From Minisyncoccota bacterium (GTDB taxonomy: Bacteria > Patescibacteriota > Minisyncoccia > Minisyncoccales > UBA5738), in assembly GCA_025453415.1 (NCBI GenBank), contig JALOQL010000002.1, positions 1-43,433 of the forward strand: 43,433 bases of DNA. Reading direction: 5' to 3'. Shown piece after piece: positions 8,390-41,478 of this stretch (position 1 is the first letter of the stretch; every line of letters starts with the position of its first letter). Made by a program: the position numbers and the translations under genes. A model generated the notes under the pieces. That model worked only from the letters and a program-made list of their open reading frames with translations, did no database searches and was not told the origin of the DNA.

Positions 8390-9241
8390 TTAGATCATGA
8401 TTATTATCAACCCCGCGGTCACGCCCGCGATACCCAGGCTTTTCTTCCGCGTTAGCTCGTCGCCGAAAAGCTTGACCGCCAGCAAGCTGATGATGGCCAC
8501 ATTGGCAATATGGATCGCGTTGACATAGCCCATGTTGGGCGCGTGCGTGAAGGCGTTCCACATGAAAATGTTGCCGAATCCCGAAGCAACGCCCATCAGC
8601 AGGAGCGGTCCCGCCTGTTTTTTATGGTCCAGAATGTTAATTTTGCGCAACATGGTCTCAGCATAAAAAAACGATAGCGACAACAGCATCGACCAGAACA
8701 AAAATACCAGCTGGTTTATCCCCGCCAACGTCGCGTATTTCACCGTAATCGATAACGCCGCGTAGGCAAAAAACGCCCCGAAAGAATATTTGGCCCAATG
8801 CCGGCCCGTTGCCTTTCTTTTCCCTTTTTCATTAGCCAAGATCAATAATTGGCTCGCTAAAATAAGCGCCACGCCGGCAATCTTGGCCCACGAAAACTCC
8901 CCGCCAAAAAGGAAAATGGATGCGGCTAAAGTGATCACCACATAGCTTTTGACGATCGCGGTACTATAACCGGGATTCGGGGCGCGATTGAACCCCCGGA
9001 TGCTGGAAGCGTTGCCGGCATAAATGCAAACCGCGGCGAAAACAACCAAAAAATATGCTCCCGGCGCCGATGTTCCAATTCCGGTGGCCGCGCCCGCGAC
9101 GAGAAAAACCAAAACCGCCACCGCGTAAGTGGCGAAATTGATCACTGAAAACGGCACGCCCGCGCGCCAGGTGGTCTTGCCGAGAACCTGCGTCAAAACG
9201 AAAAACATCAGCGCTAGCAAACTCTCGACAACCCAATTCAT
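8390..9241 (-). CDS. EamA/DMT-superfamily membrane transporter (two EamA halves, about 10 TM)
   Basis: 283 aa and almost entirely hydrophobic spans. There are two homologous halves, each carrying APNPGYSTAIVKS or APNMGYVNAIHIA. 4-nt overlap with the E1-beta stop. Confidence 0.85.
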   Translation of the reverse strand: MNWVVESLLALMFFVLTQVLGKTTWRAGVPFSVINFATYAVAVLVFLVAGAATGIGTSAPGAYFLVVFAAVCIYAGNASSIRGFNRAPNPGYSTAIVKSYVVITLAASIFLFGGEFSWAKIAGVALILASQLLILANEKGKRKATGRHWAKYSFGAFFAYAALSITVKYATLAGINQLVFLFWSMLLSLSFFYAETMLRKINILDHKKQAGPLLLMGVASGFGNIFMWNAFTHAPNMGYVNAIHIANVAIISLLAVKLFGDELTRKKSLGIAGVTAGLIIIMI

Positions 9242-10233
9242 AGGCTCATCGTTTTTTTAACCGCCGCGACTATTTGCTCAGCCTTGGGATAATAAGCCGC
9301 CTCAAGCGAACGGCTGGCCGGCGCCGGACAATCCGGCAAACAGACTTTTTCTATCGGCGCCTTCAATGTATATACTTTTGTATATACATGAGTATATACT
9401 CGGCAAGCGATTTCCGAAGAGACGCCAAAACTCTGCCAGGCGCCTTCGGCGATCACCAGGCGGCCGGTCTTTTTGACCGATCCCAGGATCAGCGGCATAT
9501 CAAGCGGTTTTATCGTGCGCGGGTCGATCACTTCGATATCGATTCCCTCTTTTGCCAAAATTTCGGCGGCCTTCAATGCCTCGGGCACCAGATATGATAT
9601 CGCGACCACGGTCGCGTCGGAACCGTTGCGCAGTAATTTTCCTTTGCCGATCGGCACTTCATACAGTTCTTCGGGAACCTCCTCCTCCAGGCCGTAAAGC
9701 CAGCGGTCATCCAAAAAGACCACCGGGTCCGCGTCGCGCACCGCGCTGACCAACAGCCCCTTGGCATCGTAGGGACCGGACGGCATCACCACTTTCAGGC
9801 CCGGCGCGTGGGCGAAGATCGCCTGGATCGCCTGCGAATGCTGGGCGGCCTGCTCGCCGCCGCGGTTGATTATTCCCCAAAACACCGCCGGCACATTGGA
9901 ATTGCCGCCGGCCATATAGCGCCAATTGGCCGCGCCGTTGATGATCGCGTCCAACGCGTAAAACATGAAATCCAAACGCGGATAGTTCATTACGGGTTTC
10001 AGTCCGTTCATCGCGCTGCCGGCCGCCACGCCGCTCATCGCGTTTTCGGAAATCGGCGTATCAATGACCCTTTCTTCGCCGAATTCCTGGATCAGGCCGT
10101 TGCAGGTATTGCCCACGTACCACGGGCTCTTCACCCCCTGGCCGATCACAAAAACCGCCGGGTCGCTTTCCATAAGCTGGCGCAAGGCTTCGTTGATCGC
10201 CAAACCAAATTTCAATTTCCTATTCGAAGACAT
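9238..10233 (-). CDS. ThDP-dependent 2-oxoacid/acetoin dehydrogenase E1 component, beta subunit
   Basis: 331 aa. Motifs: VFVIGQGV, RVIDTPISENAMSGVAAGSAMNGLKPV, VVMPSGPYDAKGLL, EVIDPRTIKPLD. These fit the Transket_pyr + transketolase_C architecture. Confidence 0.9.
   Translation of the reverse strand: MSSNRKLKFGLAINEALRQLMESDPAVFVIGQGVKSPWYVGNTCNGLIQEFGEERVIDTPISENAMSGVAAGSAMNGLKPVMNYPRLDFMFYALDAIINGAANWRYMAGGNSNVPAVFWGIINRGGEQAAQHSQAIQAIFAHAPGLKVVMPSGPYDAKGLLVSAVRDADPVVFLDDRWLYGLEEEVPEELYEVPIGKGKLLRNGSDATVVAISYLVPEALKAAEILAKEGIDIEVIDPRTIKPLDMPLILGSVKKTGRLVIAEGAWQSFGVSSEIACRVYTHVYTKVYTLKAPIEKVCLPDCPAPASRSLEAAYYPKAEQIVAAVKKTMSL
9368..9399. repeat. Three phased copies (12-nt period) of the palindromic octamer GTATATAC inside the E1-beta gene
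   Basis: gtatatac at 9368-9375, 9380-9387 and 9392-9399, separated by tttt and atga. On the coding strand this encodes VYTHVYTKVYT. Confidence 0.9.
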
Positions 10234-11191
10234 GTTTTTGCAAATCGCTTACGACCGGCCGCGGACTGTCGATCGCGTATTCCTGCGCTTTTTTAACTTT
10301 TTCGGTAATTTCCTGCTTCACGGTTTCCAATTCGTCCTTGTCAAAAATTTTGTTTTCCAATAAATATTTTTCAAACCGCATTACCGGGTCTTTCGCCCGC
10401 CATTCATCAACTTCCGCTTGCGGCCTGATATCGGTGTGCTGGCCCTGAATATTGTCATCCGGCCCCACGTGGCCGCGCATACGATACGTCAATGATTCGA
10501 TGAAATACGGCCCGAGACCGGCGCGGCAATGTTTGGCCGCAATCTTGGCGGCTTCGTAAACTTTCAAAATATCGTTACCGCCAACTTGCGCCGCCGCGAT
10601 ACCGAACGGCTCTGCTATTTTATAAAGAGGAATGCCGGGCCGGCACTCACGAATGTGAAGGTGCGTGGAGTACAGGTTGTTTTCGCAAACAAAAATTACC
10701 GGCAGGCATTTCAACGCCGCAAAATTAAGCGATTCGTAGATTATCCCTTCGCCCGCCGCGCCATCGCCAAAAAACGTCGCGGCGATCTGGCCGTTTTTCT
10801 TGATCGAATCCGCCAGCGCCGCCCCGACCGCCATCGCCACGGTCTGGGAAATTATCGGCGCCGAACCCATAAAATTGCAGTCTCGCGCCATAAGGTGCAT
10901 CGAACCGCCCCGGCCGCGGCTGCAACCGGTTTCCTTGGTATAGATCTCGGCCAGCATCCGGTTGAGGTCTCCCCCCTTGGCCAGATAATGGCCGTGGCCC
11001 CGGTGGTTCGAAAACACCTGGTCGCCGCTTTCCAGCGCGGCGCACACGCCCACCGCGGACGCTTCCTGGCCGGTATACAAATGGCACGGGGTTTTCACCT
11101 CGCCCTTCAATATCGGGTCGATCAGACATTCCTCGGCCAGCCGGATCGTCAGCATCTTCCGGTACAAATTTTCCAAAAATGATTTTTCCAT
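10220..11191 (-). CDS. ThDP-dependent 2-oxoacid/acetoin dehydrogenase E1 component, alpha subunit
   Basis: 323 aa. Motifs: HRGHGHYLAKGGD, GRGGSMHL, and the ThDP-binding GDGAAGEGIIYESLNFAALKCLPVIFVCENN. 14-nt overlap with the beta gene. Confidence 0.9.
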   Translation of the reverse strand: MEKSFLENLYRKMLTIRLAEECLIDPILKGEVKTPCHLYTGQEASAVGVCAALESGDQVFSNHRGHGHYLAKGGDLNRMLAEIYTKETGCSRGRGGSMHLMARDCNFMGSAPIISQTVAMAVGAALADSIKKNGQIAATFFGDGAAGEGIIYESLNFAALKCLPVIFVCENNLYSTHLHIRECRPGIPLYKIAEPFGIAAAQVGGNDILKVYEAAKIAAKHCRAGLGPYFIESLTYRMRGHVGPDDNIQGQHTDIRPQAEVDEWRAKDPVMRFEKYLLENKIFDKDELETVKQEITEKVKKAQEYAIDSPRPVVSDLQKHVFE

Positions 11192-13719: not shown

Positions 13720-14415
13720 TTAATTTTTCACCATTTGCCAGCAGTCCGCTCCCAATATTTTTACCACCCGGCCGCAATCAAAACCGCATTCGCGAATTTG
13801 GGTTTCTACCTCCGCAATCTTGATATTTCGGTCGTCGATTTCCCAGTAATGCGCCGGGTCTTTCCAAGTTATTTTTTTGACCACCTGCTGATAAAAAGAT
13901 TTCGGGCTGCTTTTTAACCACGCGGGCAAATCGATGATCCAGGGCTTTTTATAGGAAAGCGGCGTGGCCAGCAGAACGCGGCCGCGGCGGTGCGGCAGGG
14001 AAATGAGGGCTTGGCCGCCCGGGCGCAAATAGCGATTGATATTATTTAAATTGGTTTTCAAATCCTGGTAAGGCATGTGCTCTAAAACCTCGGTGCAAAT
14101 CACCGCGTCAAACCGTCCTTCCAGGCTTTCGTTAAAAACCCGAACATCGGCAACCACATCGGGCTGGAGCTTATCATTAATATCCATCACCATGTATTCT
14201 TCCGCGAATTGGGACGCGCAGTGTTTCACGATCCCGTCGCCGGAACCGATCTCCAAAATTTTTATCGGGCCCAAATCGAGCAGCCTGCGGATAATGAATT
14301 CATGCCGGCATAAACTCGGAATATCTATCCCCCGCAAATATTCTATCTTGTCTATAAAAAGCAATTTGTCGAAATCCTCTTTTTTATCCATGTAAATGTT
14401 AACCGTTAAAAACAA
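13720..14415 (-). CDS. Class I SAM-dependent methyltransferase
   Basis: The track start at 14415 is TTG. The first ATG is 14391 (MDKKEDF...), so the true start is uncertain. Motif I ILEIGSGDGI, VICTEVLEHM, LRPGGQALISLP. Confidence 0.8.
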   Translation of the reverse strand: MFLTVNIYMDKKEDFDKLLFIDKIEYLRGIDIPSLCRHEFIIRRLLDLGPIKILEIGSGDGIVKHCASQFAEEYMVMDINDKLQPDVVADVRVFNESLEGRFDAVICTEVLEHMPYQDLKTNLNNINRYLRPGGQALISLPHRRGRVLLATPLSYKKPWIIDLPAWLKSSPKSFYQQVVKKITWKDPAHYWEIDDRNIKIAEVETQIRECGFDCGRVVKILGADCWQMVKN

Positions 14416-14428
14416 TGGCCCCCGCGCA

Positions 14429-15334
14429 TCAAGCGGCCTGTCGGATTATACGGGCCGGGTTCCCGACCACCACCGCGCCGGCGGGCACCGATTTCAGCAC
14501 CACGGCGCCAAGCCCCACCGTAACCCGGTCGCCGACAACTATGCCGTTCATGATCGAGCTGTTGGGCGCGATCCAGCAATCGGCGCCGATCCGGGCGCTG
14601 CCGCACACCGCCGCGCCGGCGATAACCAGGGTCCGGGCGCCAATTTTGACATTATGGGCGACAAACACATTATCGTCAATTTTAACGTTGTCGGCGATCT
14701 CGGTGTCCGCAAGCGTGCCGCGGCAAATAACGCTGTTGGCGCCGATTTCCACATTATCGCCGATCACCACGCCGCCCAAATGCTTCAGAGGAAAAGGGAT
14801 CCGGTTTTCATCGCGTTCAAAACCAAAACCTTTCTGGCCCACCACCGCATTGGATTTAATGACCGTATTTTTGCCGATCCGCACGTTATCGGCAACGACC
14901 GCGCCGGCCATGACCACCGAACCGTCGCCGATGGCGACATTTTTTCCGATGACCGCGTATTCGCCAATGACAACGCGGCCGATCCGGCAACCCTCGCCGA
15001 TCAGCGCGGTGGGATGGATCTTGACTTCGAATTCCGGGGGCGTAAGGCGTTGGATCAATTTCGCAAACGCCAGCCGCGGATTTTGAACAACGACATAAGC
15101 CCGGCCGTTCTTTTGCGGCAATGTTGCGCCGCGGCGGCAAACCACGATCGAAGCGACGCTCTGCTCCAGAAACCGCGCCGCTTCTTCTCCCTGACGGCTG
15201 CAAAAGCAAAGCGATTCCCCGTTGGCGCGGTCAATGGGCAGGAAATTTGAAAAAGTCGCGGCCGGGTCGCCCTGAATTTCGATCTGCTCGCCGGCCAGAA
15301 CCTCTCTGACCGAATCCAATGTGTGTTTTTCCAT
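14429..15334 (-). CDS. LpxD-architecture left-handed beta-helix N-acyltransferase (nucleotide-sugar amine N-acyltransferase)
   Basis: 301 aa. The N-terminal domain resembles the LpxD uridine-binding domain (GDPAATFSNFLPIDRANGESLCFCS...ASIVVC). Hexapeptide repeats follow, with GQKGFGFERDE...VVIGDNVEIGANSVICRGTLADTEIADNVKIDDNVFVAHNVKIG. The LpxD C-terminal helical extension is absent. Confidence 0.85.
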   Translation of the reverse strand: MEKHTLDSVREVLAGEQIEIQGDPAATFSNFLPIDRANGESLCFCSRQGEEAARFLEQSVASIVVCRRGATLPQKNGRAYVVVQNPRLAFAKLIQRLTPPEFEVKIHPTALIGEGCRIGRVVIGEYAVIGKNVAIGDGSVVMAGAVVADNVRIGKNTVIKSNAVVGQKGFGFERDENRIPFPLKHLGGVVIGDNVEIGANSVICRGTLADTEIADNVKIDDNVFVAHNVKIGARTLVIAGAAVCGSARIGADCWIAPNSSIMNGIVVGDRVTVGLGAVVLKSVPAGAVVVGNPARIIRQAA

Positions 15335-15344
15335 GGTTTTCGCG

Positions 15345-15989
15345 CTAACGAATCGTCCATTTCACGACCTGGAAAGTTTCGGCGTATTCGGCATCGCCGC
15401 TCTGGCCCCCCCGGACTTTGGCCAGGCTGGAAATGAAATCGGGAGACATGTAAAAACGGTTCCCCTGCGATTTATAGCACGCAAGCGCGGCAATCTTCTT
15501 GTCCAGATCGCTTTTCCCAAGTACCACAAACGATTCGGTCTCAAAAGTCAGATTGTTCCAAGGGAGCTCATAGCCCAGAATGCTCACCTGGGTACCCTTG
15601 AACGCCCTCAAACCTTCTTGATACATGACTTGATGGTCCTGATGCACGTCAAAAACCGAAGGCAGCATCACAATGCCCGGATCGATCTTTCTCTTCAATC
15701 CGATCAGGTCGTCGAGGATTTGCTGGCGATGTCCGGGAAAATTCCTGACCGGATAATTGAAAAGGATAAGGTTTTCCGGCTTTAACCCCAAAATCCGGGT
15801 CGCTTCGCGCACTTCGGTTTTCAGGATATCGCGGGGAAATCCCGGCGGCACGGATTCGTCAGCCGAGGAAAAAGCCGCGTAAAACACTTCCTTGCCCTCC
15901 CGGATGAATTTGGCAATGGCGCCGCCGCAGCCCAATTCGCCGTCATCGGTATGGGGACATATTATCAATATTTTATCAAATGAATCCAT
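15345..15989 (-). CDS. PIG-L/LmbE-family N-acetyl-sugar deacetylase
   Basis: 214 aa. ILIICPHTDDGELGCGGAIAKF (PHxDD) and VFDVHQDHQ (HxDH) zinc-binding motifs. Confidence 0.9.
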   Translation of the reverse strand: MDSFDKILIICPHTDDGELGCGGAIAKFIREGKEVFYAAFSSADESVPPGFPRDILKTEVREATRILGLKPENLILFNYPVRNFPGHRQQILDDLIGLKRKIDPGIVMLPSVFDVHQDHQVMYQEGLRAFKGTQVSILGYELPWNNLTFETESFVVLGKSDLDKKIAALACYKSQGNRFYMSPDFISSLAKVRGGQSGDAEYAETFQVVKWTIR

Positions 15990-25951: not shown

Positions 25952-27772
25952 TTAGTTATCCGGAAAAAAACGCCTTAAGAAAAGTTCGAAGGTTGCGATA
26001 TACATTATCTTCATTGAATTATCCCTTTGCCCGGAATATTGCTGGTCAAAAAGCTTGGCAATATATCTTTTACTAAGATAGCGTTGCGATAAAAGATTTC
26101 TTTCATCCGACAAAAGTTTCCCGAAGAATTCCCGCCATGAGCCTTCTTTGGCAAACCATTTTTCAAAATCGACATAATTGCGCTTTGTCCAAAAAGCAAC
26201 CTTTCCGGCGGTCGCTTGCCGCACAATTTGCCGGACCGTATCCAGCCGGCTCCGAAAATTGGCGCCTGCCTGCCACAGCCATCGCGGCGCGTCGGCGCGC
26301 ACGCCGGTGGAATTATATGGTATGGCAGCCAGCTTGGGAAAACGCTTCGCCAGCAATCGGCGGTAAATGCGATGCTGGCTTCTCATGCCAGGCGGCAACG
26401 CCATTATGACATCAATAAAACCATTGTCCATCGCCGGTGAAGAGTGTTCGACCTGCGACCGCATCAGGCGGTAGCCTTCCATCGTGAACCGCCTCACGTG
26501 ATTATCCAAGAAAAATTTATCGATATGGTTGGCTAAATCTTCGCAAGAAGACGCGGCAAAACTCTCCTCCAGGGAAAACCGCGGCCATTCTTGGGATTTA
26601 TCGTAAAAACCGGCGTTAAAAAGCTCTCCCCTCTCTTCATGGGAAAAGAGCGCCGTTTGGTATATCGCTTCTTTCAATCGTTCCCGGTCATGGACATGAG
26701 AGAACTTGTCCAAATAGCTGCCTCCCAAAGTCAGGTCAAGCGCAAAACCATCAAATACGACCTCGGCATCGCGCGCCGCCAATTTATGGATAGGCGGAAT
26801 ATACCCCACGCCAATATAATCCATGCCTTCAGTTATTTCCACTGCCTCGGACGCGCCCTGGGTAATTATTTGCGGCTCAATATCAAAGCAATTCCAGGGC
26901 AGATTTAAACGATTGGCCACCTTTTGGGCAATCCGGACTTCTTCGCAATCGGCGCCGCCAAAAGAAAACGCCCGGAAGTTACCCCTGGCATCCGCCGGAA
27001 TAAGGCCGGCCACCAAACGCGAATCCAGGCCACCGCTCAGTGATACCGAGCCAGTCCGGGAAGGTCGCGTCCGTAAGACCATCGCCCGATCAAGCGTCTG
27101 CGCCAATTCGTCAACGAATCGCGCCTCGCTTTTTACATTGTCGGGCGAATATGGAAAATCCCAATACCGATCAAAATCCGCCTTCCCGCCTTGAAAAGAG
27201 AATATCGTCCCGGCCGGAAAAGCGCGCACGCCTCCGAAAAATGTCTTATCGCCCAATAACTTTCCGAAAGCAAACCAATCCGCGACCGCGGCCTCATCTA
27301 GTCGCGGCGCACCTCCGGCCCGTGCCACCGCCGCGGCGGACGGGGCAAGCATAAAATAATTTGAATCTATCGCGAAGAAATGCGGCCGGGAACCAAAACG
27401 GTCGCTGGCAACCAATGTCTTTCTTTGATTAAAATCGTGGATACAGATAATAAATGAACCGTTTAAGCGGTGAATAAAATCCACGCCTTCTTTCTCGTAA
27501 AGACCAAGGCACAACTTGGCATCATTTCCGCTCTCCGCGGTTCCATACAGTTCACCGTCAAGCATGACCGCCACGCTCCGGTCATGGTTAAAAACCGGCT
27601 GCGGCCCAGGATTGAATGTTCCTAAATGAAGGCGAGCTCCGCAAAATGAAGCATGGCAAAAACGGTCGGTTTGGAAATGGCCGCGACCCATTGCTGCGGA
27701 AATCATTTTTTCCAGCAATGCTCCATCGATGGCAATATTTGACGATGGCGCAACACAGATCAATCCAGGCAT
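25952..27772 (-). CDS. Asparagine synthetase (AsnB)-like amidotransferase/amide ligase, N-terminal nucleophile Cys absent
   Basis: The track start at 27865 overlaps the upstream GT4 by 80 nt. ATG 27772 lies 13 nt after that stop. The N-terminus reads MPGLICVAPS where AsnB has MCG/MCS. PP-loop SVSLSGGLDSRLVAG is present. 606 aa. Confidence 0.85.
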   Translation of the reverse strand: MPGLICVAPSSNIAIDGALLEKMISAAMGRGHFQTDRFCHASFCGARLHLGTFNPGPQPVFNHDRSVAVMLDGELYGTAESGNDAKLCLGLYEKEGVDFIHRLNGSFIICIHDFNQRKTLVASDRFGSRPHFFAIDSNYFMLAPSAAAVARAGGAPRLDEAAVADWFAFGKLLGDKTFFGGVRAFPAGTIFSFQGGKADFDRYWDFPYSPDNVKSEARFVDELAQTLDRAMVLRTRPSRTGSVSLSGGLDSRLVAGLIPADARGNFRAFSFGGADCEEVRIAQKVANRLNLPWNCFDIEPQIITQGASEAVEITEGMDYIGVGYIPPIHKLAARDAEVVFDGFALDLTLGGSYLDKFSHVHDRERLKEAIYQTALFSHEERGELFNAGFYDKSQEWPRFSLEESFAASSCEDLANHIDKFFLDNHVRRFTMEGYRLMRSQVEHSSPAMDNGFIDVIMALPPGMRSQHRIYRRLLAKRFPKLAAIPYNSTGVRADAPRWLWQAGANFRSRLDTVRQIVRQATAGKVAFWTKRNYVDFEKWFAKEGSWREFFGKLLSDERNLLSQRYLSKRYIAKLFDQQYSGQRDNSMKIMYIATFELFLRRFFPDN

Positions 27773-27785
27773 ATTTTTTTGGCAA

Positions 27786-28964
27786 TCATCGCTTTTTTGA
27801 GATTTGGCAGTATGCTTCGTGCAGCTGTTTACCCACGGCCGCAAGGCTGAAATTATCCGCGGCATACCTGTTCAACTCTTTTGGCGCATAATCCTGGCAA
27901 TGATCCAGCATTCGGACCACCGCGGCGGCCAATGAGGATTTGTCGCCCAACGGCACCAGTATTCCCCGGTTCGCGCTGATAGTCCGGCGAAATGCCGGAA
28001 TATCATAGGCCACCACCGGAATACCGCAAGCCAAAGCCTCGACCGTGCTGGCGCCAAAAGTTTCCCCATAGCTGGGATGCAGCATAAAATCACATTGCCG
28101 CATCATCCGGGCAACCTCCTGTTTTGGCTGTAAACCATGGAAAATGGCCCGATCGCCGATCCCCAATTGCCGCGCCATTTCTTCGTAATCTCCCTGACGC
28201 GGCCCGCCGCCGAAAATATGCATTTGCCAACCGGAACGCTCCCTTAGCTTTACCAGCACCTCCAATATATCGCCGATCCCCTTTTCCGGAAGCAGATTTC
28301 CGACGAACACGATCCGCTTGGGCCGCCCATCGATTCCGCACTTTGACTCCGGAAAAAAAATCGAAGTATCCACCGCGTTGGGAATGACGCGGAAATTAGC
28401 TTTGATCCCGTAGGATTGGATCGCTGCCATCAACGGCTGGCTCACCGGCAACACCGCGTCCGCCAAGCCGAACGCCAAACGGGCTTTTAATATCTCTGAC
28501 GCCGGCAAAGCTTTGCGAGAAAAAATACTCCAATGTTCGGTGACCGCGACCGGAATACCGAGGCGCCGGCCAATGGCAACCGCCGCCAATCCGGAAACAT
28601 AGACATGGGCATGAATCACATCCGGGGTAAAACCACTTCTTTTAATTTGCCGGAAAGCGCGGCCGACACACCATAGATATGTTGCCAGCGAAGTTCCCGG
28701 CAAACGCGGTTTTCGGTAAAACAATCTGTAAGTGACAATCCCCTGCGCCACTTCCGGGTCGCTTTCCTCCTCAATCTGCCACAATCGTCTTGCCCCCGAA
28801 TCCGCCTGGATCCAATACAGAACCCGCACGTCATCATTTATCTTTGCGGCTTTCGCGTGTTCGCGCACAAAAACGTTATCGGCCGGATGGTCTTTGGTGG
28901 GATAGCTTCCGGTGATAAAAAGCACCTTCAACCGGCGTTTGCCGGTTACGCTTTCGGACACCAT
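27786..28964 (-). CDS. GT4-family glycosyltransferase
   Basis: 392 aa. Strings: KVLFITGSYP, HPSYGETFGASTVEALACGIPVVAYDIPAFRRTI. Confidence 0.85.
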   Translation of the reverse strand: MVSESVTGKRRLKVLFITGSYPTKDHPADNVFVREHAKAAKINDDVRVLYWIQADSGARRLWQIEEESDPEVAQGIVTYRLFYRKPRLPGTSLATYLWCVGRAFRQIKRSGFTPDVIHAHVYVSGLAAVAIGRRLGIPVAVTEHWSIFSRKALPASEILKARLAFGLADAVLPVSQPLMAAIQSYGIKANFRVIPNAVDTSIFFPESKCGIDGRPKRIVFVGNLLPEKGIGDILEVLVKLRERSGWQMHIFGGGPRQGDYEEMARQLGIGDRAIFHGLQPKQEVARMMRQCDFMLHPSYGETFGASTVEALACGIPVVAYDIPAFRRTISANRGILVPLGDKSSLAAAVVRMLDHCQDYAPKELNRYAADNFSLAAVGKQLHEAYCQISKKR

Positions 28965-35279: not shown

Positions 35280-36362
35280 TTATCTTGCGGACGCCATTTT
35301 TTCGAGCATGGCGGTTATCCTGCCGGCGGCATTGCCGTCCCCGAATTCATTGCCGGGGCGAGTTTGCGGCACCGGGGCGGCAATGGCCTTTTCCATCTTG
35401 CCAATATCCGTCCCCGCCAAAGTGTTCCATCCCGCGGCCACAGTTTCCGGCCAGCAATTTTCTTCCAAAAGAGTCACGCAGGGAACTTCGGTCCAATAGG
35501 CCTCTTTTTGGATGCCGCCGCTGTCGGTAACGATCTTTTTAGCTCCGGATTGAAGCGCCATCATGTCCAGATAACCGACCGGATCGATAAGCTTGATGTT
35601 TTCCGCCGGCCGAATCTTGTTTTTATCCATTGCGGCGCGCGTACGCGGATGGACCGGGAAAACCGCCGGCCCGGTATTGGCAAGCGCTCCCAGGATCCGG
35701 CCCAAAACCGCCGGATCATCCACGTTCTGAGGCCGGTGGATCGTGACCAGCAAATATGTATTTTTTGCCAGCCCGGTTTTTTCGATGATCGTCGAATTGT
35801 CGGCAAAACGTTTTCCGCGCCGGAAAGAATCATACATCAGATCGCCGACGTTATGCGCCCGCTCGCCCAGGCCTTCCCGTTCCAGATTGGCCACCGAAGA
35901 TCGGACCGGGCAAAAGAGCGCGTCCGAAACATGGTCGGCCACCAGCCGGTTGATCTCTTCGGGCATCGCCCGATTGAAAGCGCGCGGCCCGGCTTCGATA
36001 TGGGCAACCAGTATATGCATTTTTGCCGCCACCAGGGCGCCGGCAAGTGTGGAATTGACATCCCCCACCACCGCCACGATATCCGGCGTTTCTTTTTGCA
36101 AAACCTCTTCGATCGCTTCCATCATCCTGGCCGTCTGGCGCGCATGCGTGTCCGAACCGATACCCAGGTTGTAATCCGGTTTGGGAATTTCCAGGTCCTG
36201 GAAAAAAACCTGCGACATCTCATAGTCGTAATGCTGGCCCGTATGGACCAAGACCGGTAAAAAATCAGGATGGTTTCGCCATTGCCAAAAAAGAGGCGCG
36301 ATCTTTATGAAATTCGGCCGCGCCCCCACGACAATGGCAATCTTTTTTTTGTTATCCCCCAT
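35280..36362 (-). CDS. wecB: UDP-N-acetylglucosamine(-uronate) 2-epimerase, non-hydrolysing (WecB/WbpI family)
   Basis: 360 aa. Motifs: IAIVVGARPNFIKIAPL, VHTGQHYDYEMSQVFFQDLEIPKPDYNLGIGS, VVGDVNSTLAGAL, DSGGIQKEA. Confidence 0.9.
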   Translation of the reverse strand: MGDNKKKIAIVVGARPNFIKIAPLFWQWRNHPDFLPVLVHTGQHYDYEMSQVFFQDLEIPKPDYNLGIGSDTHARQTARMMEAIEEVLQKETPDIVAVVGDVNSTLAGALVAAKMHILVAHIEAGPRAFNRAMPEEINRLVADHVSDALFCPVRSSVANLEREGLGERAHNVGDLMYDSFRRGKRFADNSTIIEKTGLAKNTYLLVTIHRPQNVDDPAVLGRILGALANTGPAVFPVHPRTRAAMDKNKIRPAENIKLIDPVGYLDMMALQSGAKKIVTDSGGIQKEAYWTEVPCVTLLEENCWPETVAAGWNTLAGTDIGKMEKAIAAPVPQTRPGNEFGDGNAAGRITAMLEKMASAR

Positions 36363-37458
36363 AGAATTCTTTAATTGTTTTTAGCGCTATTTCCTGTTCA
36401 TCGGCGGAAAATTCCGGATAGATCGGCAAGCTAATAACTTTTTGCGAAATTAGCGCCGCGTTCGGGCAGCTACCGGCCTCGATCCCGAGGTATTCGAATG
36501 CCGGCTGGGAATGCAATGGCACCGAATAATAAACCATCGTCGGGATCTGGCGTTCTTTTAAAAATTTTTGCAGCGCATCCCGCCGGTCGGTCGTGATCGT
36601 GTATTGGTGAAAAACGCATTCCCGGCCGCTTCCGATCCCCGGAAAAATCATATCGCCCGCTCCCGCCAAACTTTCGTTGTATTTTTCGGCAATTCCGATC
36701 CGCAAATCGTTACAGTCGTTCAAATGGCGCAATTTCACCCGCAGGACCGCGGCCTGGATCGCGTCCAGGCGCGAATTGACCCCCAGGGTCAAATGCAAAT
36801 ATTTGTTTGTCGGCGAAGAACCGTGAGCGCGCAATAATTTTATTTTTTGCGCGATATCGTCGTTATCGGTCGTCAGCATTCCCCCGTCGCCGTAAGCCCC
36901 CAAATTCTTGGTCGGGAAAAAGGAAAAACAGCCGATATCGCCGACGGTGCCGCAAAATTTTTGACCGCACTTTGCACCCATCGCCTGCGCCGCGTCCTCG
37001 ATGACATACAAATTACCGTCCTTGGCGATTTTGGAAATCGCCGTCATATCCGCGGCCCGGCCGAAAAGATGGACCGGGATGATCGCTTTGGTTCTGGAAG
37101 TTATCTTTTTTTCGATATCTTCGGGATCGATATTGAACGTTACCGGATCGATATCGACGAAAACCGGCACGGCGCCGCACTGGGCCACCGTTTCGGCCGT
37201 GGCGATGAAAGTAAAATCCGGTACCAGCACTTCATCGCCCGGCCCGATATCCAAGGCTTTCAATGCCAGGTAAAGCGCGTCCGTACCCGAATTGAGAGTA
37301 ATCGCGTGCGCGGTCTCCAAAAAAACGGCCGCCTCTTTTTCAAAAGCCGCCACTTCGGGGCCGCCGATAAAAACGCCGTTTTCCAGCGTTCTCAAAACCG
37401 CCCCGTCAATTTCTTCCTTTATCGATTGATACTGTTTTTTAAGGTCGAAAAATTCCAT
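36352..37458 (-). CDS. wbpE: DegT-family aminotransferase, WbpE/WlbC-like (3-keto-UDP-GlcNAcA aminotransferase by context)
   Basis: 368 aa. Motifs: FFDLKKQYQSIKEEIDGAVLRTLENGVFIGGPEVAAFE, NSGTDALYLALKALDIGPGDEVLVP, EDAAQAMGA, FSFFPTKNLGAYGDGG. The symbol is assigned from neighbourhood only. Confidence 0.85.
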   Translation of the reverse strand: MEFFDLKKQYQSIKEEIDGAVLRTLENGVFIGGPEVAAFEKEAAVFLETAHAITLNSGTDALYLALKALDIGPGDEVLVPDFTFIATAETVAQCGAVPVFVDIDPVTFNIDPEDIEKKITSRTKAIIPVHLFGRAADMTAISKIAKDGNLYVIEDAAQAMGAKCGQKFCGTVGDIGCFSFFPTKNLGAYGDGGMLTTDNDDIAQKIKLLRAHGSSPTNKYLHLTLGVNSRLDAIQAAVLRVKLRHLNDCNDLRIGIAEKYNESLAGAGDMIFPGIGSGRECVFHQYTITTDRRDALQKFLKERQIPTMVYYSVPLHSQPAFEYLGIEAGSCPNAALISQKVISLPIYPEFSADEQEIALKTIKEFYGG

Positions 37459-37467
37459 AATCGATTA

Positions 37468-37896
37468 TTATTTCCCTATTAAAAAAATCCCGAAAATCAC
37501 GCACAAGATACCGGCAAATGAGTAAACGCCCAAGGAAGAATGGAACAGTATCGGCGCGAGCAAAGCAACGAGGACGAATTGGCATGATTTCAATGTTGTC
37601 GCGTAACCAGGATTCGGTGCCATTTTTATCGCGTTAACATCAAAAAAATTAGCAAAAAGCGAAAATATCGCGGCAATGGCAAAAAATAGAAACATTTTCG
37701 GCGTCACGGCGTAAAGATCGCTTTTCTCAATGGCATTCCAGATGAAAAAACCCAGGAACACCAGCCCGAAAAGGAAAAAATTCAAGACCAAGGGTTTGAC
37801 GCCCATCAATAACAATTTTTTATAAACCAATATCATCGCCCCGTAAAAAACCGCGGCCAGCAATCCGCTCACGAACCAATTTTGTATTATTGGCAT
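37468..37896 (-). CDS. Single-EamA-domain small membrane protein (half-size DMT)
   Basis: 142 aa with about 5 hydrophobic spans. It carries APNPGYATTLKSCQFV, the same motif as both halves of 8390..9241. Confidence 0.7.
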   Translation of the reverse strand: MPIIQNWFVSGLLAAVFYGAMILVYKKLLLMGVKPLVLNFFLFGLVFLGFFIWNAIEKSDLYAVTPKMFLFFAIAAIFSLFANFFDVNAIKMAPNPGYATTLKSCQFVLVALLAPILFHSSLGVYSFAGILCVIFGIFLIGK

Positions 37897-37923
37897 AAGA
37901 TTGATCCTCGCCTCTTGCGATAA

Positions 37924-38775
37924 CTAATATTCATAAAAACCCTTTTTTGTTTTACGCCCTAAATATCCTCGTTCTACCATTTCCCGGATAAGCGGACAAG
38001 GACGGTATTTTTTGTCGGAAAAACCCTGCTCAAGACCTTCCATTATCCTCAAACAAACGTCCAAACCAATCAAATCGGCCAGCTCCAGCGGCCCCATGGG
38101 AAATTTGCCGCCTAATTTCATTATTCTGTCGATATCCTCTTTTGACGCAATCCCCTCCTGCAAACAAAAAGCTGCTTCATTGATCATGGGCAAAAGCAGG
38201 CGGTTCAGCAAAAAACCCGGGGAATCCTTGACCAATACCGGAACCTTGCCCAGGTTTCGCGCGAATTCCATCGTTCTTTCCACGGTCTTAGCCGAAGTGT
38301 CCGCGCCGGGCGCGACTTCCACCAGATCGATGATGAACGGCGGATTCATAAAATGCATCCCCGTGATCCGCTCCCTTCCGGACAAATCACGCGCGATCTC
38401 GGAAATCGTGATCGCCGAAGTGTTTGATGCCAAGATCGTTTCCGGCGGACAAGCGCGATCCAGCTCGGCAAAAAGCGCTTTTTTGCTGGCCAAATCCTCA
38501 TTGATCGCTTCGCAAACGAACGCCGCGCCGGCGGCCTCGCCGATATCATCGATAATTCGAACCTGTTTGAGCGCCTTTTCAAAATCGGGCTGGGTGATCT
38601 TTCCTTTTTGAAAATCCTTGCCGAATATTTTGCTGATTTCCGCCGCTGCCCGTTGCCGGGCGGCCGCATCGGGTTCGCAAACCAGCACCGCGTAGCCGCG
38701 TCGGGCGCATAAAACGGCGATTCCCTGCCCCATGACCCCCCCGCCAATGACCGCGATTTTATCCATGGGCTGCAT
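37924..38775 (-). CDS. hbd: 3-hydroxyacyl-CoA (3-hydroxybutyryl-CoA) dehydrogenase
   Basis: 283 aa. Motifs: KIAVIGGGVMGQGIA, ASNTSAITISEIA, GMHFMNPP, SPGFLLNRLLLPMINEA, GPLELADLIGLDV. Confidence 0.9.
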   Translation of the reverse strand: MQPMDKIAVIGGGVMGQGIAVLCARRGYAVLVCEPDAAARQRAAAEISKIFGKDFQKGKITQPDFEKALKQVRIIDDIGEAAGAAFVCEAINEDLASKKALFAELDRACPPETILASNTSAITISEIARDLSGRERITGMHFMNPPFIIDLVEVAPGADTSAKTVERTMEFARNLGKVPVLVKDSPGFLLNRLLLPMINEAAFCLQEGIASKEDIDRIMKLGGKFPMGPLELADLIGLDVCLRIMEGLEQGFSDKKYRPCPLIREMVERGYLGRKTKKGFYEY

Positions 38776-38788
38776 ATTAAAATTGATT

Positions 38789-39370
38789 TTAAGCTAATCC
38801 GACCTCCTGACCTTTCTTGGTATATTTCCGGCCGCAAGCCGAACAGCTTCCCGCTTCTTGGCCACCGGATCCAGAAACAAATTCCAATTTAATGCCGCAT
38901 TCGCAGACCCAACCGATCTGCTTGGCCGGCACGCCCACCATCAACGCGTGATCGGGAACTTGGCCTTTGACCACCGCGCCGGCGCCAATGAGCGCCCATT
39001 TGCCGATGGTCGAACCGCAAACGACCGTCGAGTTGGCGCCAAGAGTAGCACCTTCTTTGACCAGCGTCGGCAACCATTCTTCCTTGGTCTTTGGATATTT
39101 TGCCCGCGGATTCAAATCGTTGGTAAATACCGCCGACGGACCCACAAAAACATAATCCTCCAAGGTAACCTTATGCCAAACATCGGTGTTGGACTGGATC
39201 TTGACGCCGTTGCCGACAGTCACTTCGCCGACCAAGCAATTATGGCCGATAACGCAATTTTCTCCAATGACCGCTCCCTCGAGCACTTGGGCGTTGTGCC
39301 AAATCTTTGTTCCGTCGCCGATAACGGCCTTCGGGGAAACTTCGGCGGTACTATGAATGGTAATCGGCAT
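38789..39370 (-). CDS. wbpD: Hexapeptide-repeat N-acetyltransferase, WbpD/WlbB-like, with C-terminal CxxC...CxxC tail
   Basis: 193 aa. IHSTAEVSPKAVIGDGTKIWHNAQVLEGAVIGENCVIGHNCLV, then the tail WVCECGIKLEF...CSACGRKY. The symbol is assigned from neighbourhood. Confidence 0.85.
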   Translation of the reverse strand: MPITIHSTAEVSPKAVIGDGTKIWHNAQVLEGAVIGENCVIGHNCLVGEVTVGNGVKIQSNTDVWHKVTLEDYVFVGPSAVFTNDLNPRAKYPKTKEEWLPTLVKEGATLGANSTVVCGSTIGKWALIGAGAVVKGQVPDHALMVGVPAKQIGWVCECGIKLEFVSGSGGQEAGSCSACGRKYTKKGQEVGLA

Positions 39371-40151
39371 ATAATTTTTCGATAAGTTCGATGGGCGGCA
39401 AAACCTCGGCGGGAGTCACGCCCTTTCCCCGCGTCAAGTCGCGGTAAACGAACTGGTGCAGGTTTTCTTCGGCTAAATTTTCCTTCTTTGAAAAATTTAC
39501 CTGCTCGCCATTAATGGTAAATTCCCTTTTCCACGGCTCATCGATCTTGGCGCCGACGCTAACCCGCCACGCGCAATCATAGTTCGCGCCTTTAATGATC
39601 CCGGTGCCGGTCTTACCGTCAAACGCATCCATTCTCGCTTCGGTCGCTGGTCCGAAAAGATTCAACAACAGCTCAAAATAGTGAGGGCCTAAAACGAAGA
39701 GCGGGCCGCCCGACCGATCGATATCACCTTTCCAACCCTCGAAATAGTGCCGGTCGCGGTAAACAAAAATATCCATTTTAATATCGTATCGCTCCTTGGC
39801 GGAAATTTCCTTTTCCAAGCGTTGGTATTCCGGATGGTAACGCAATTGCTGGACCACGAATATGTTTTGGCGTTTCATCAAATCGCGGATGTGTTCGGAT
39901 TTGATCGCCATGGGTTTTTCGCTCAAAACGATCTTCCCCGCCTCGTTGGCCGCGACCGCGATCGGATAATGCAGATAATTGGGCGCCAGCACGACAGCGC
40001 AATCCGCCTCGGGATTGGCAACCAATTTTTTCCACTCTTCTCCCCGGCCGTGCGTGATATCGCAAACGTCAACAATCTCGCCGCCGGTTTCGCGGATGGC
40101 CCGCAAATGGTTGCGGAAAATAAATCCTGTACCAATGATAACAAACTTCAT
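39351..40151 (-). CDS. wbpB: Gfo/Idh/MocA-family oxidoreductase, WbpB/WlbA-like (short form)
   Basis: The track start at 40250 overlaps the upstream gene. ATG 40151 (MKFVIIGTGFIFRNHL...) lies 4 nt after the upstream stop. LSEKPMA (EKP motif). 266 aa. 20-nt overlap with the downstream gene. Confidence 0.8.
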   Translation of the reverse strand: MKFVIIGTGFIFRNHLRAIRETGGEIVDVCDITHGRGEEWKKLVANPEADCAVVLAPNYLHYPIAVAANEAGKIVLSEKPMAIKSEHIRDLMKRQNIFVVQQLRYHPEYQRLEKEISAKERYDIKMDIFVYRDRHYFEGWKGDIDRSGGPLFVLGPHYFELLLNLFGPATEARMDAFDGKTGTGIIKGANYDCAWRVSVGAKIDEPWKREFTINGEQVNFSKKENLAEENLHQFVYRDLTRGKGVTPAEVLPPIELIEKLYADYHS

Positions 40152-40155
40152 ATGA

Positions 40156-41478
40156 TTAGAATCGAAAAACATTTTTATGATTGCGCGATTTGACCGCATT
40201 GCGGGTATCGATGACCAGCTTGGCGTTTTCGGCCAATTTTTCATAATCAAAACCCGAATGGTCGGTTAAAATGACCACCGCGTCATAGTCTTCGGCCGCG
40301 CCAATGCCTTCGGCCAAGGAACGCAGCGCTACCGGATGGCCGTTTTTCAGCATGTAATTTCCGGCCGGGACAGAAAATTCGGAAATATGGGGATCGAAAT
40401 AATCAACCTTGGCGCCTTTGCGCAAAAGATTGGCGATGATATCGGCCGCGCCGCCTTCGCGCGGATCGTTGATATCCCTTTTATAGGCCACGCCCCAGAT
40501 CAATATCTTGGAACCGTTGAGGGGTTTCCCGGCCCGGTTGAGCGCAAACCCGGTTTTAGCAACGACATTGTGCGGCATCTGCTCGTTGATCTCCCCGGCA
40601 AGTTCGATAAAACGCAGCCAGAAGTTGTACTCTTTGGCTTTCCATGAAAGATAGAACGGGTCGAGAGGGATGCAATGGCCGCCAACCTTTGGCGAAGGAT
40701 AAAAGGCCTGGAATCCGTAGGGCTTGGTCTTGGCCGCCTCGATCACTTCCCAAATATCAATATCCATCTTGCCGCAAAGGAGCGCCAGCTCATTGATGGC
40801 GGAAATATTGATCAACCGGTAGGTATTTTCCAGGATCTTGGTCATTTCCGCGGCACGCGCCGACGAAACCGGATGGACGTGCTTCAAAAACTGCGAATAG
40901 AACAACGCGGCCAGCTTGGTGCACTCGGGCGTAATCCCGCCCACCACCTTGGGCACTTCGTTGAGCGGCATGGTATTGCCCGGGTCGATGCGCTCGGGCG
41001 CGAACGCCAAATAAAAATCCTGGCCGCACTTCAGCTCGCCTTCCTCGAACATCGGCAAAAGCACCTCGTCGGTCGTACCCGGATAAGTGGTGCTTTCCAG
41101 GACGATCAGCTGCCCCGGCCGCAAATATTTTTTAATTTCCCTTGCCGAATTTTGGATATAGGAAATATCGGGAATCTTGTATTTGTCCAAAGGCGTGGGC
41201 ACGCAAATGATTATCACATCGGCATTCTTGAGCGACGCGAAATCAATCGAAGCGGTAAATTTTTCCGCTTCGATTATTTTTTTGAGGTCGCCGTCTTTCA
41301 CGTCCTGGATGTAGGATTCCCCGCGGTTCAGCGCTTCCACCCTTTTTTGCTGGATATCCAACCCGATGACATTCATCCCGGCATTGGCGATCTCCAGCGC
41401 GTGCGGCAGCCCCACATACCCCATTCCGATTATCGCGACCTTCGCCTCCTTCCTCCCGATCAGTTCATTTAGGTTCAT
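40156..41478 (-). CDS. wbpA: UDP-N-acetyl-hexosamine 6-dehydrogenase (WbpA/WecC/Cap5O family)
   Basis: 440 aa. Motifs: KVAIIGMGYVGLPHALEIANAG, VPTPLD, GGHCIPLDPFYLSWKA. The symbol is assigned from neighbourhood. Confidence 0.9.
   Translation of the reverse strand: MNLNELIGRKEAKVAIIGMGYVGLPHALEIANAGMNVIGLDIQQKRVEALNRGESYIQDVKDGDLKKIIEAEKFTASIDFASLKNADVIIICVPTPLDKYKIPDISYIQNSAREIKKYLRPGQLIVLESTTYPGTTDEVLLPMFEEGELKCGQDFYLAFAPERIDPGNTMPLNEVPKVVGGITPECTKLAALFYSQFLKHVHPVSSARAAEMTKILENTYRLINISAINELALLCGKMDIDIWEVIEAAKTKPYGFQAFYPSPKVGGHCIPLDPFYLSWKAKEYNFWLRFIELAGEINEQMPHNVVAKTGFALNRAGKPLNGSKILIWGVAYKRDINDPREGGAADIIANLLRKGAKVDYFDPHISEFSVPAGNYMLKNGHPVALRSLAEGIGAAEDYDAVVILTDHSGFDYEKLAENAKLVIDTRNAVKSRNHKNVFRF

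Follow-up and report, generated by a model that had tools for sequence, protein, structure and literature searches.

A PIG-L deacetylase gene paired with a short LpxD-fold acyltransferase gene in a Patescibacteria glycan locus: a candidate module for N-acyl exchange on an amino sugar

The 43,433-nucleotide contig JALOQL010000002.1, referred to here as the window, is one of the 117 contigs of a 1.02-Mb, 71%-complete assembly (GCA_025453415.1) from a member of the Patescibacteria, or candidate phyla radiation (CPR). It carries a 43-kb glycan locus that lies entirely on the minus strand, with the exception of one short plus-strand open reading frame (ORF). The subject of the current report is a pair of adjacent genes in this locus, the first for a zinc-dependent de-N-acetylase of the PIG-L/LmbE family and the second for a short N-acyltransferase with the fold of LpxD (coordinates of these and other features are collected in Table 1). 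The stop codon of the first and the start codon of the second are separated by exactly 10 nucleotides (TAG CGCGAAAACC ATG). Based on Pfam matches, the surrounding genes encode Wzy, Wzz, a PglF-like dehydratase, three DegT aminotransferases and transferases of the GT2 and GT4 families, and the locus also contains genes for Wzx, methyltransferases, an AsnB-like amidotransferase, a radical SAM enzyme and a set of WbpA, WbpB, WbpD-like, WbpE and WbpI proteins.

The product of the first gene matches PF02585 over profile positions 1-128 of 129 (61.5 bits against a cutoff of 28.2). Together with the ORF positions and the spacer sequence, this match bears out what a preliminary description of the window, made from the DNA letters, had stated about the presence of a zinc PIG-L/LmbE de-N-acetylase 10 nucleotides upstream of the acyltransferase. 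The zinc motifs PHTDD (at residue 12) and HQDH are present and have been kept in 18/18 of the orthologues that partner LpxD-like genes. The PIG-L partners of LpxD-like genes in other phyla make up a single close-knit subfamily and share 45-73% identity with the PIG-L protein of the window, and the best solved relatives of the latter (TT1542, diacetylchitobiose deacetylase and BshB) are all distant. We propose that this protein is the putative first step of a two-step process, in which it would remove the N-acetyl group from a sugar of the (UDP-)HexNAc type.

The 301-aa product of the second gene had been described as having the layout of LpxD, and much of that description stands. Its N-terminal domain, which is LpxD-type and not PglD-type, is recognized by PF04613 at residues 30-95 (38.8 bits against a cutoff of 30.8), a left-handed beta-helix is present (Hexapep, 103 bits), and GFGF occurs at residues 168-171 and VAHNV at residues 225-229, the latter having been reported as an "IAHNV-type" string. 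A model of the protein that was generated with AlphaFold (AF2) from 52 homologues has a pLDDT of 95.7, and the best 25 matches of this model that Foldseek found in the Protein Data Bank (PDB) were all LpxD, with 310-316 columns aligned; compared to E. coli LpxD, the model has a TM score of 0.85 and a root-mean-square deviation of 2.3 Å. The residues equivalent to F41, D232, H239, N240 and G257 of E. coli LpxD are conserved, and D220, H227, N228 and G245 of the window protein are invariant in the alignment of its homologues. We take His239, Asp232 and Asn240 of the E. coli enzyme to be catalytic and Gly257 to be its oxyanion residue. The portion of the earlier description that did not hold up concerns the C terminus. 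Here nothing is left of the C-terminal helical domain of LpxD, and the last elements of the model are beta strands: the match to the LpxD profile stops at position 317 of 345, and the protein terminates after GNPARIIRQAA, ~35 residues short of the end of E. coli LpxD. One 18-residue coil of the LpxD beta-helix is absent as well. In LpxD, the missing helices dock acyl carrier protein (ACP) with its acyl chain, as in the LpxD-ACP structures 4ihf-4ihh.

The truncated C terminus resembles that of the CoA-dependent hexapeptide acyltransferases, whose G-x-P-A-K/R motif is represented by GNPAR. Residues 189-295 match positions 94-202 of the 202 in TIGR03570 (NeuD/PglD; 116.7 bits, with the cutoff of 160.8 not reached), and the C-terminal ~100 residues reach the last positions of the WbbJ, Maa, CysE and EpsC models too, whereas E. 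coli LpxD matches the NeuD/PglD, WbbJ, Maa and CysE-type models only through internal coils. On TIGR01853, the lpxD equivalog, the window protein scores 207.3 bits, which is below the cutoff of 242.5 (E. coli LpxD, 436.6 bits), and on NF002060, an NCBIfam LpxD "subfamily" model, it scores 220 bits, which is above the cutoff of 207. The short LpxD-like proteins P0017 (237 bits) and L013:5674-6675 (217 bits) also pass NF002060, and all three fail TIGR01853. Judged by its profile scores and by its predicted structure, the protein is an LpxD by fold and not by membership.

Proteins of this short type occur in many other genomes. From 28 short-type loci and ~100 genuine LpxD loci, a maximum likelihood tree was derived that comprises 133 proteins of the LpxD family and has E. 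coli LpxA as its root; some of the loci bearing the gene pair are near-duplicates of each other, and a profile scan with generic patterns, most of the matches of which were genuine LpxDs, contributed to the background of the tree. Placement of the protein against LpxD, as had been recommended in the preliminary description, assigned it to a clade (28 rows, SH-aLRT 99) that takes in all of the short proteins and is distinct from the genuine LpxDs sampled. The genes for 20 of the 28 are adjacent to a PIG-L gene and those for the other 8 are not, and fabZ or lpxA neighbours were found for 0/28. The pairing is not a matter of chance, because all 20 of the PIG-L-adjacent rows fall inside the clade and a PIG-L neighbour was seen in none of the rows outside it. 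When counted by locus, a PIG-L gene lies within 2.4 kb in 22/28 of the clade loci, mostly overlapping the LpxD-like gene or less than 100 bp away from it. Both orders of the two genes exist, and the phyla represented are the Bacteroidota, Pseudomonadota, Acidobacteriota, Bacillota and Fibrobacterota in addition to the CPR genome examined here; among the hosts are members of the Bacteroidales, Comamonas, Noviherbaspirillum, a gammaproteobacterium, Pseudoalteromonas rubra, Blastocatellia, Sporomusa and Fibrobacter. The pairwise distance matrices of the PIG-L and acyltransferase proteins are correlated (Mantel r 0.50; 0/2000 permutations gave a value as high), which shows that the two genes are inherited together and is not a measure of function.

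A search of 5.8 billion proteins with the acyltransferase returned thousands of matches, the best 120 of which are ~250-320 aa long. With a profile of the clade, a search of 1.84 billion cluster representatives (50% identity) detected at least 150 of them with scores above 317 bits, all ~292-405 aa in length; the 8,574 matches at E <=1e-30 in the same search include genuine LpxDs. The family is a large one, and its hosts come from no fewer than six bacterial phyla. No paper that characterizes the combination of PIG-L and LpxD-like genes was found in the literature searched, and we refer to it as a widespread, uncharacterized gene pair.

The pair had been described as standing outside of a lipid A pathway, in a window lacking lpxA, lpxC, lpxB and lpxK, and our results agree on both counts. 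Domain scans of the window proteins detected no genes resembling lpxA, lpxC, lpxB or lpxK; in the 71%-complete genome, lpxA, lpxC, lpxB and bamA were not detected and a tblastn search for FabZ was negative; and lpxC was found in 0/30 relatives, 27 of which are at least 90% complete. The interpretation of the acyltransferase as a true LpxD or as the remnant of a lipid A pathway was rejected in view of the sub-cutoff equivalog score, the missing ACP domain, the separate clade and the absence of the pathway from these searches. A version of it that would assign the remaining pathway to the 29% of the genome missing from the assembly, or to a mis-binned contig, could draw on the incompleteness of the assembly and on the NF002060 score; it is scarcely credible to us, given the scores and domain losses just listed, a clade without fabZ or lpxA neighbours, and relatives in which neither lpxC (0/30) nor the acyltransferase gene itself (0/40) was found. 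In terms of composition, the origin of the contig from a Gram-negative organism is contradicted by its fit to the rest of the metagenome-assembled genome (MAG): its GC content is 51.9% vs 50.2% for the MAG, and its tetranucleotide correlation is 0.981 vs a median of 0.964. The RecA fragment of the assembly has its best matches in Patescibacteria MAGs (92% and 87% identical). Members of the Gram-positive bacteria, the CPR and other groups that pass NF002060 receive the name "UDP-3-O-(3-hydroxymyristoyl)glucosamine N-acyltransferase", which can be mistaken for a sign of lipid A or of an outer membrane and amounts to a systematic source of false names.

The gene for the LpxD-like acyltransferase is present in 0/40 relatives of the CPR organism. 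Vertical inheritance within the lineage was rejected on this count, and the cassette to which the gene belongs is therefore accessory and was probably acquired horizontally. The genomes of the relatives measure 0.8-1.2 Mb within the genus and 0.3-0.8 Mb within the order. The glycan locus takes up 43 kb of an assembly of ~1 Mb and also holds the only gene for 3-hydroxybutyryl-CoA dehydrogenase (hbd) to be found in the genome, which represents a large outlay on the tailoring of a surface glycan.

We assign a probability of roughly 0.6 to the interpretation that the two enzymes constitute an N-acyl swap module, by which an amino sugar of a surface glycan might, in its nucleotide-activated form, exchange its N-acetyl group for a 3-hydroxybutyryl group. 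The interpretation is supported by comparative genomics: the analysis showed the folds, the motifs, the clade membership, the conserved synteny and the lack of a lipid A pathway, from which we infer the substrates, the order of the steps, the regiochemistry and the acyl group. In the first step, the soluble zinc PIG-L enzyme would deacetylate a UDP-HexNAc-type sugar by hydrolysis, the likeliest substrate being the 2-N-acetyl group of UDP-GlcNAc or UDP-ManNAc, or of a uronic or 2,3-diamino-uronic derivative made by the Wbp-like genes of the locus. In the second, the LpxD-derived enzyme, as a trimeric beta-helix, would bind the UDP moiety through its retained uridine-binding domain and, with His227 acting as the general base, would acylate the freed amine with a short 3-hydroxyacyl group. 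The Hbd of the locus would supply the donor, 3-hydroxybutyryl-CoA, and the re-acylated sugar might then be taken by the conserved GT2 enzyme that is encoded downstream. Deacetylation followed by re-acylation with a 3-hydroxyacyl group had been suggested from the window sequence, and the suggestion is strengthened by the clade-wide adjacency of PIG-L genes, the co-varying distances, seven pair-bearing loci that are free of aminotransferase genes in the flanks retrieved, and the acyl-supply genes inserted between the members of some pairs.

The inserted genes bear on the nature of the acyl group. In the closest relatives of the pair, loci L042/L043 (62% identity) and L048 (54%), the gene order is PIG-L, Hbd, LpxD-like, and in L044/L045 (52%) it is PIG-L, thiolase, Hbd, LpxD-like. 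Supply routes that are not homologous to these were seen in other loci: an SDR (short-chain dehydrogenase/reductase) ketoreductase gene follows the pair in Pseudoalteromonas rubra (L062), genes for an SDR and a FabH-like condensing enzyme lie between its members in Sporomusa (L012) and accompany PIG-L in Cloacimonadota (L131/L132), and a gene for an AMP-ligase is part of the module in a deltaproteobacterial MAG (L133). With the exception of the AMP-ligase, the products of these supply genes are all predicted to make short 3-hydroxyacyl thioesters. The Hbd of the window has 3-hydroxybutyryl-CoA dehydrogenase as its best NCBIfam match (331 bits) and is 48-50% identical to the Hbd proteins encoded between PIG-L and LpxD-like genes in L042 and L048. 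The donor in the CPR organism is probably 3-hydroxybutyryl-CoA rather than an acyl-ACP; the CoA thioester is favoured because the enzyme has a CoA-type C terminus and has lost the ACP-docking domain, because no ACP was found in the lineage and because an Hbd is encoded in the locus. A motif scan and a search with PF00550 detected no ACP or other PP-binding ORF in the genome or in 9/9 genomes of the same genus, which argues against an acyl-ACP donor.

Several observations weigh against this choice of donor. The hbd gene of the window lies 22 kb from the pair and adjoins the gene for a WbpD-like acetyltransferase, which it could serve instead. The preliminary description had taken the presence of hbd as pointing to N-(3-hydroxyacyl) amino sugars, and its inference receives support from the closest relatives, in which hbd, with or without a thiolase gene, is inserted between the two genes, but not from the position of hbd in the window itself. 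No thiolase was found in the 71%-complete assembly, so that a source of acetoacetyl-CoA is missing; this deficit is tempered by the finding of a thiolase-family ORF, one of ~385 aa, in 9/9 of the same-genus genomes. Finally, acyl-supply genes are missing altogether from many of the loci that carry the pair, and the acyl group may therefore differ between loci. The location of hbd and the loci without supply genes, along with the acetyltransferase-like C-terminal third of the acyltransferase, would also fit a scheme in which acetyl-CoA is the donor, the LpxD-like enzyme works as a conventional N-acetyltransferase, and hbd serves the WbpD-like enzyme or has some other role. We regard that scheme as improbable: the removal of an acetyl group would be pointless if another were put in its place, yet a deacetylase is the conserved partner; no fewer than six independent loci have genes for Hbd, thiolase, FabH-like or ketoreductase enzymes inside the module; and WbpD-like orthologues in Sporomusa and the Bacteroidales (187-189 bits) have no adjacent hbd.

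A different donor might come from the thiamine diphosphate (ThDP)-dependent enzymes of these cassettes, since ThDP enzyme genes, an E1 alpha/beta pair or a split transketolase, are found just downstream of the cassette in the window and in L042, L044 and L048, and a C2 or C3 unit might be transferred in place of 3-hydroxybutyryl. We consider such a donor very improbable, because searches of the genome and of the same-genus genomes yielded no ACP, E2 component or PP-binding ORF and because it is hbd, and not the ThDP genes, that lies between the members of the pair in relatives. Where the E1 alpha and beta genes stand in the window, the other three cassettes have the N and C halves of a split transketolase (L042:12562-14024, L044:14269-15577 and L048:6266-8004), which suggests that the ThDP enzymes may be interchangeable for one step.

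The weakest point of the N-acyl swap interpretation is the identity of the amine, which we take to be the 2-amine freed by the deacetylase. The conserved partner of the acyltransferase is a deacetylase; no other feature of the clade is as conserved as the adjacency to PIG-L, and there are loci in which supply genes have been inserted between the two genes. In seven pair-bearing loci, no DegT aminotransferase is encoded within the flanking 6-10 kb, and therefore the only amine available in those loci would be one that has been freed by deacetylation. In the Raetz pathway, moreover, the ancestral acceptor of LpxD is the 2-amine of a UDP-GlcN derivative. The chief alternative gives each enzyme a nitrogen of its own: the LpxD-like protein, as an analogue of WbpD or PglD, would acylate an amine made by an aminotransferase (at C3 of UDP-GlcNAc3NA or at C4 of a PglF/PglE-type product), and PIG-L would free the 2-amine, either for a zwitterionic glycan or as the substrate of some other enzyme. 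This arrangement would suit five Bacteroidales loci in which the acyltransferase gene directly follows and overlaps the gene for a WbpE-like aminotransferase, in the place of WbpD, and in which no WbpD was detected. It would also suit two loci with LpxD-like genes in a Wbp context without PIG-L (L054 and L011, from Pseudobutyrivibrio and a Bacillus MAG), as well as the cassettes of L044 and L048, where a PglF/DegT pair and a PglC-type transferase are encoded with the LpxD-like enzyme as the sole acyltransferase. Likewise, the window locus encodes three DegT aminotransferases and two acyltransferases, one of which, the LpxD-like enzyme, may serve an aminotransferase-made amine. The seven aminotransferase-free loci, the constancy of the PIG-L partner and the ancestry of the acyltransferase lead us to consider the use of different nitrogens rather unlikely, and to prefer an exchange of acyl groups on a single nitrogen.

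The identity of the sugar may be approached through the neighbouring genes, the positions of which in the window are listed in Table 1. Common neighbours of the pair are genes for WecB-type 2-epimerases, WbpA, WbpB and WbpE proteins and AsnB-like amidotransferases, with PglF and PglE in some loci, and these point to uronic or diamino-uronic acids derived from UDP-GlcNAc or UDP-ManNAc. The Wbp-like gene set of the window, predicted to function in the synthesis of a UDP-2,3-diamino-uronic acid, is a candidate source of the substrate sugar, and the same set is found around the pair in loci from the Bacteroidales, Sporomusa and Blastocatellia. AsnB-like homologues are encoded close to the pair in L021, L046, L047, L049 and L053; the AsnB-like protein of the window scores 117 bits on TIGR03108, far under the cutoff. 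Orthologues of the GT2 gene (up to 339 bits) lie directly after the LpxD-like gene, or overlap it, in L042, L044, L048 and L051, and this membrane enzyme is a likely user of the re-acylated sugar. The gene for the PglC-type transferase has the same position in L042, L044 and L048 as in the window and marks the end of the conserved cassette.

Table 1. Positions of the gene pair and of other features of the glycan locus in the window
Feature	Positions	Strand	Basis of assignment
PIG-L/LmbE zinc de-N-acetylase, 214 aa	15345-15989	-	Pfam PF02585
Short LpxD-fold N-acyltransferase, 301 aa	14429-15334	-	Pfam LpxD N-domain PF04613 and Hexapep
Membrane-anchored GT2 glycosyltransferase, 342 aa	12687-13715	-	Pfam Glycos_transf_2
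Small PglC-type phosphoglycosyl transferase (Bac_transf), 197 aa	11334-11927	-	PF02397, 202 bits
ThDP-dependent E1 alpha/beta pair, downstream of the cassette	9238-11191		
AsnB-like amidotransferase (WbpS-like context gene)	25952-27865	-	Pfam Asn_synthase and GATase_7
WbpA/WbpB/WbpD-like/(hbd)/WbpE/WbpI-like set	35280-41478	-	UDPG_MGDP_dh, GFO_IDH_MocA, Hexapep, DegT, Epimerase_2
3-Hydroxybutyryl-CoA dehydrogenase (Hbd), 283 aa	37924-38775	-	Pfam 3HCDH_N and 3HCDH
WbpD-like acetyltransferase gene, neighbour of hbd	38789-39370		

A close parallel to the proposed module is the LpxC/LpxD couple itself, in which the 2-amine of a UDP-glucosamine derivative is freed by a zinc de-N-acetylase and then receives a 3-hydroxyacyl group from an N-acyltransferase. 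The second enzyme of the window shares with LpxD its fold, its uridine-binding domain, the catalytic His and Asp and the oxyanion Gly. The differences are that the window deacetylase belongs to the PIG-L/LmbE family, which is unrelated to LpxC, and that the acyltransferase lacks a coil and the helices for ACP recognition, has a CoA-type C terminus, belongs to a clade of its own without an lpxA, lpxC, lpxB or fabZ context, and probably transfers a C4 chain instead of the C12-C16 chains of LpxD. An exchange of acyl groups is also part of the biosynthesis of teicoplanin and A40926, where an LmbE-type enzyme deacetylates a GlcNAc residue and an acyltransferase then attaches another acyl chain from an acyl-CoA; unlike the situation envisaged for the window pair, the sugar is bound to a glycopeptide, the acyltransferase is not a beta-helix protein and the chain is long.

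In the Wbp/Vim pathway of Porphyromonas gingivalis and Tannerella forsythia, the carbohydrate esterase family 4 (CE4) protein VimE has been proposed to remove the 2-N-acetyl group of UDP-GlcNAc3NAcA (Veith et al. 2020, PMC7468200), VimA, a FemAB/GNAT-type enzyme, adds Ser or Gly, and the AsnB-type WbpS amidates the acid to a uronamide (PMC7468200). The WbpA, WbpB, WbpD and WbpE genes and an AsnB-like gene are likewise found in the window locus and around many of the pairs, but the PIG-L and LpxD-fold enzymes are not homologous to VimE and VimA, the added group is probably a hydroxy-acid, and domain scans detected no CE4 or FemAB domain among the window proteins. As a separate observation, a FemAB-like (Acetyltransf_6) gene of the VimA-type aminoacyl transferase family occurs at L042:4590-5573, a few genes upstream of PIG-L, and has no counterpart in the window. 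The transfer of 3-hydroxybutanoyl to an amino sugar nucleotide in O-antigen synthesis has precedents in FdhC (E. coli O103 and Salmonella O55) and QdhC (Acinetobacter) (PMC4869667). In contrast to the pair described here, the substrates of those enzymes are dTDP-3-amino-3,6-dideoxyhexoses, the amine is made by an aminotransferase, a deacetylase does not take part, and the enzymes have not been presented as LpxD-like. As a precedent for the product, GlcN(R-3-hydroxybutanoyl) is a constituent of the Hafnia alvei PCM1221 O-antigen, and the paper that reports it gives no account of a de-acetylation step (PMC4869667). In Pseudomonas aeruginosa, the putative PIG-L de-N-acetylase DnpA of the lipopolysaccharide locus has been proposed to expose the amine of a HexNAc so that it can be re-acylated in the formation of the core GalN(L-Ala) (PMC10579960). 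DnpA differs from the window enzyme in that its substrate is probably lipid-linked, alanine is the group added and it has no LpxD-like partner. What appears to be new in the window pair, as supported by the genomic comparisons, is that a known step of deacetylation and re-acylation would be carried out by a PIG-L enzyme together with an LpxD-derived acyltransferase of the CoA type.

It might be the case, at about even odds in our estimation, that the pair represents a general route in bacteria and archaea for the replacement of the 2-N-acetyl group of UDP-HexNAc sugars, which is fixed by their biosynthesis, by various other acyl groups, in this case 3-hydroxybutyryl from CoA. If so, the PIG-L member would be the first of its family to act on a nucleotide sugar, and the acyltransferase would be a descendant of LpxD that has switched from acyl-ACP to acyl-CoA, such that the fold of an essential lipid A enzyme would have been re-used with a change in the type of donor. 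The existence of sugars such as GlcN(3-hydroxybutanoyl) would be accounted for, and the "LpxD" names in monoderm, CPR and archaeal genomes would not be traces of lipid A. Hexosamines that bear an N-acyl group other than acetyl at C2 are known from O-antigens, we found no established biosynthetic route to them, and the module is a testable candidate for one.

Variants of the module were also encountered in the genomes examined. The closest PIG-L homologues in the genome collection (57% identity) are from the Cloacimonadota loci L131 (4998-9283) and L132, where the module is without an LpxD-like gene and consists of genes for PIG-L, a FabH-like ketoacyl-ACP synthase (KAS) III, an SDR ketoreductase, a divergent 285-aa hexapeptide acyltransferase and a WecB-type 2-epimerase, in that order. 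In L133:4974-8818, genes for PIG-L and an AMP-dependent ligase are accompanied by two tandem LpxD-like genes, and two LpxD-like paralogues are encoded in the WbpA/B/E context of L054:7989-10885 and L011, the loci mentioned above as being without PIG-L. Two further observations concern ORFs of the window itself. The methyltransferase gene that follows the acyltransferase gene (13720-14415, minus strand) was listed with a TTG start codon at 14415, and an in-frame ATG at ~14392 (MDKKEDF...) seems the more plausible start. The 465-nucleotide gap between hbd and the gene for the WbpE-like aminotransferase is occupied by an unannotated ORF of 142 codons (37468-37896, minus strand), the predicted product of which has about four hydrophobic helices and looks like a small membrane protein of the SMR/EamA-half type.

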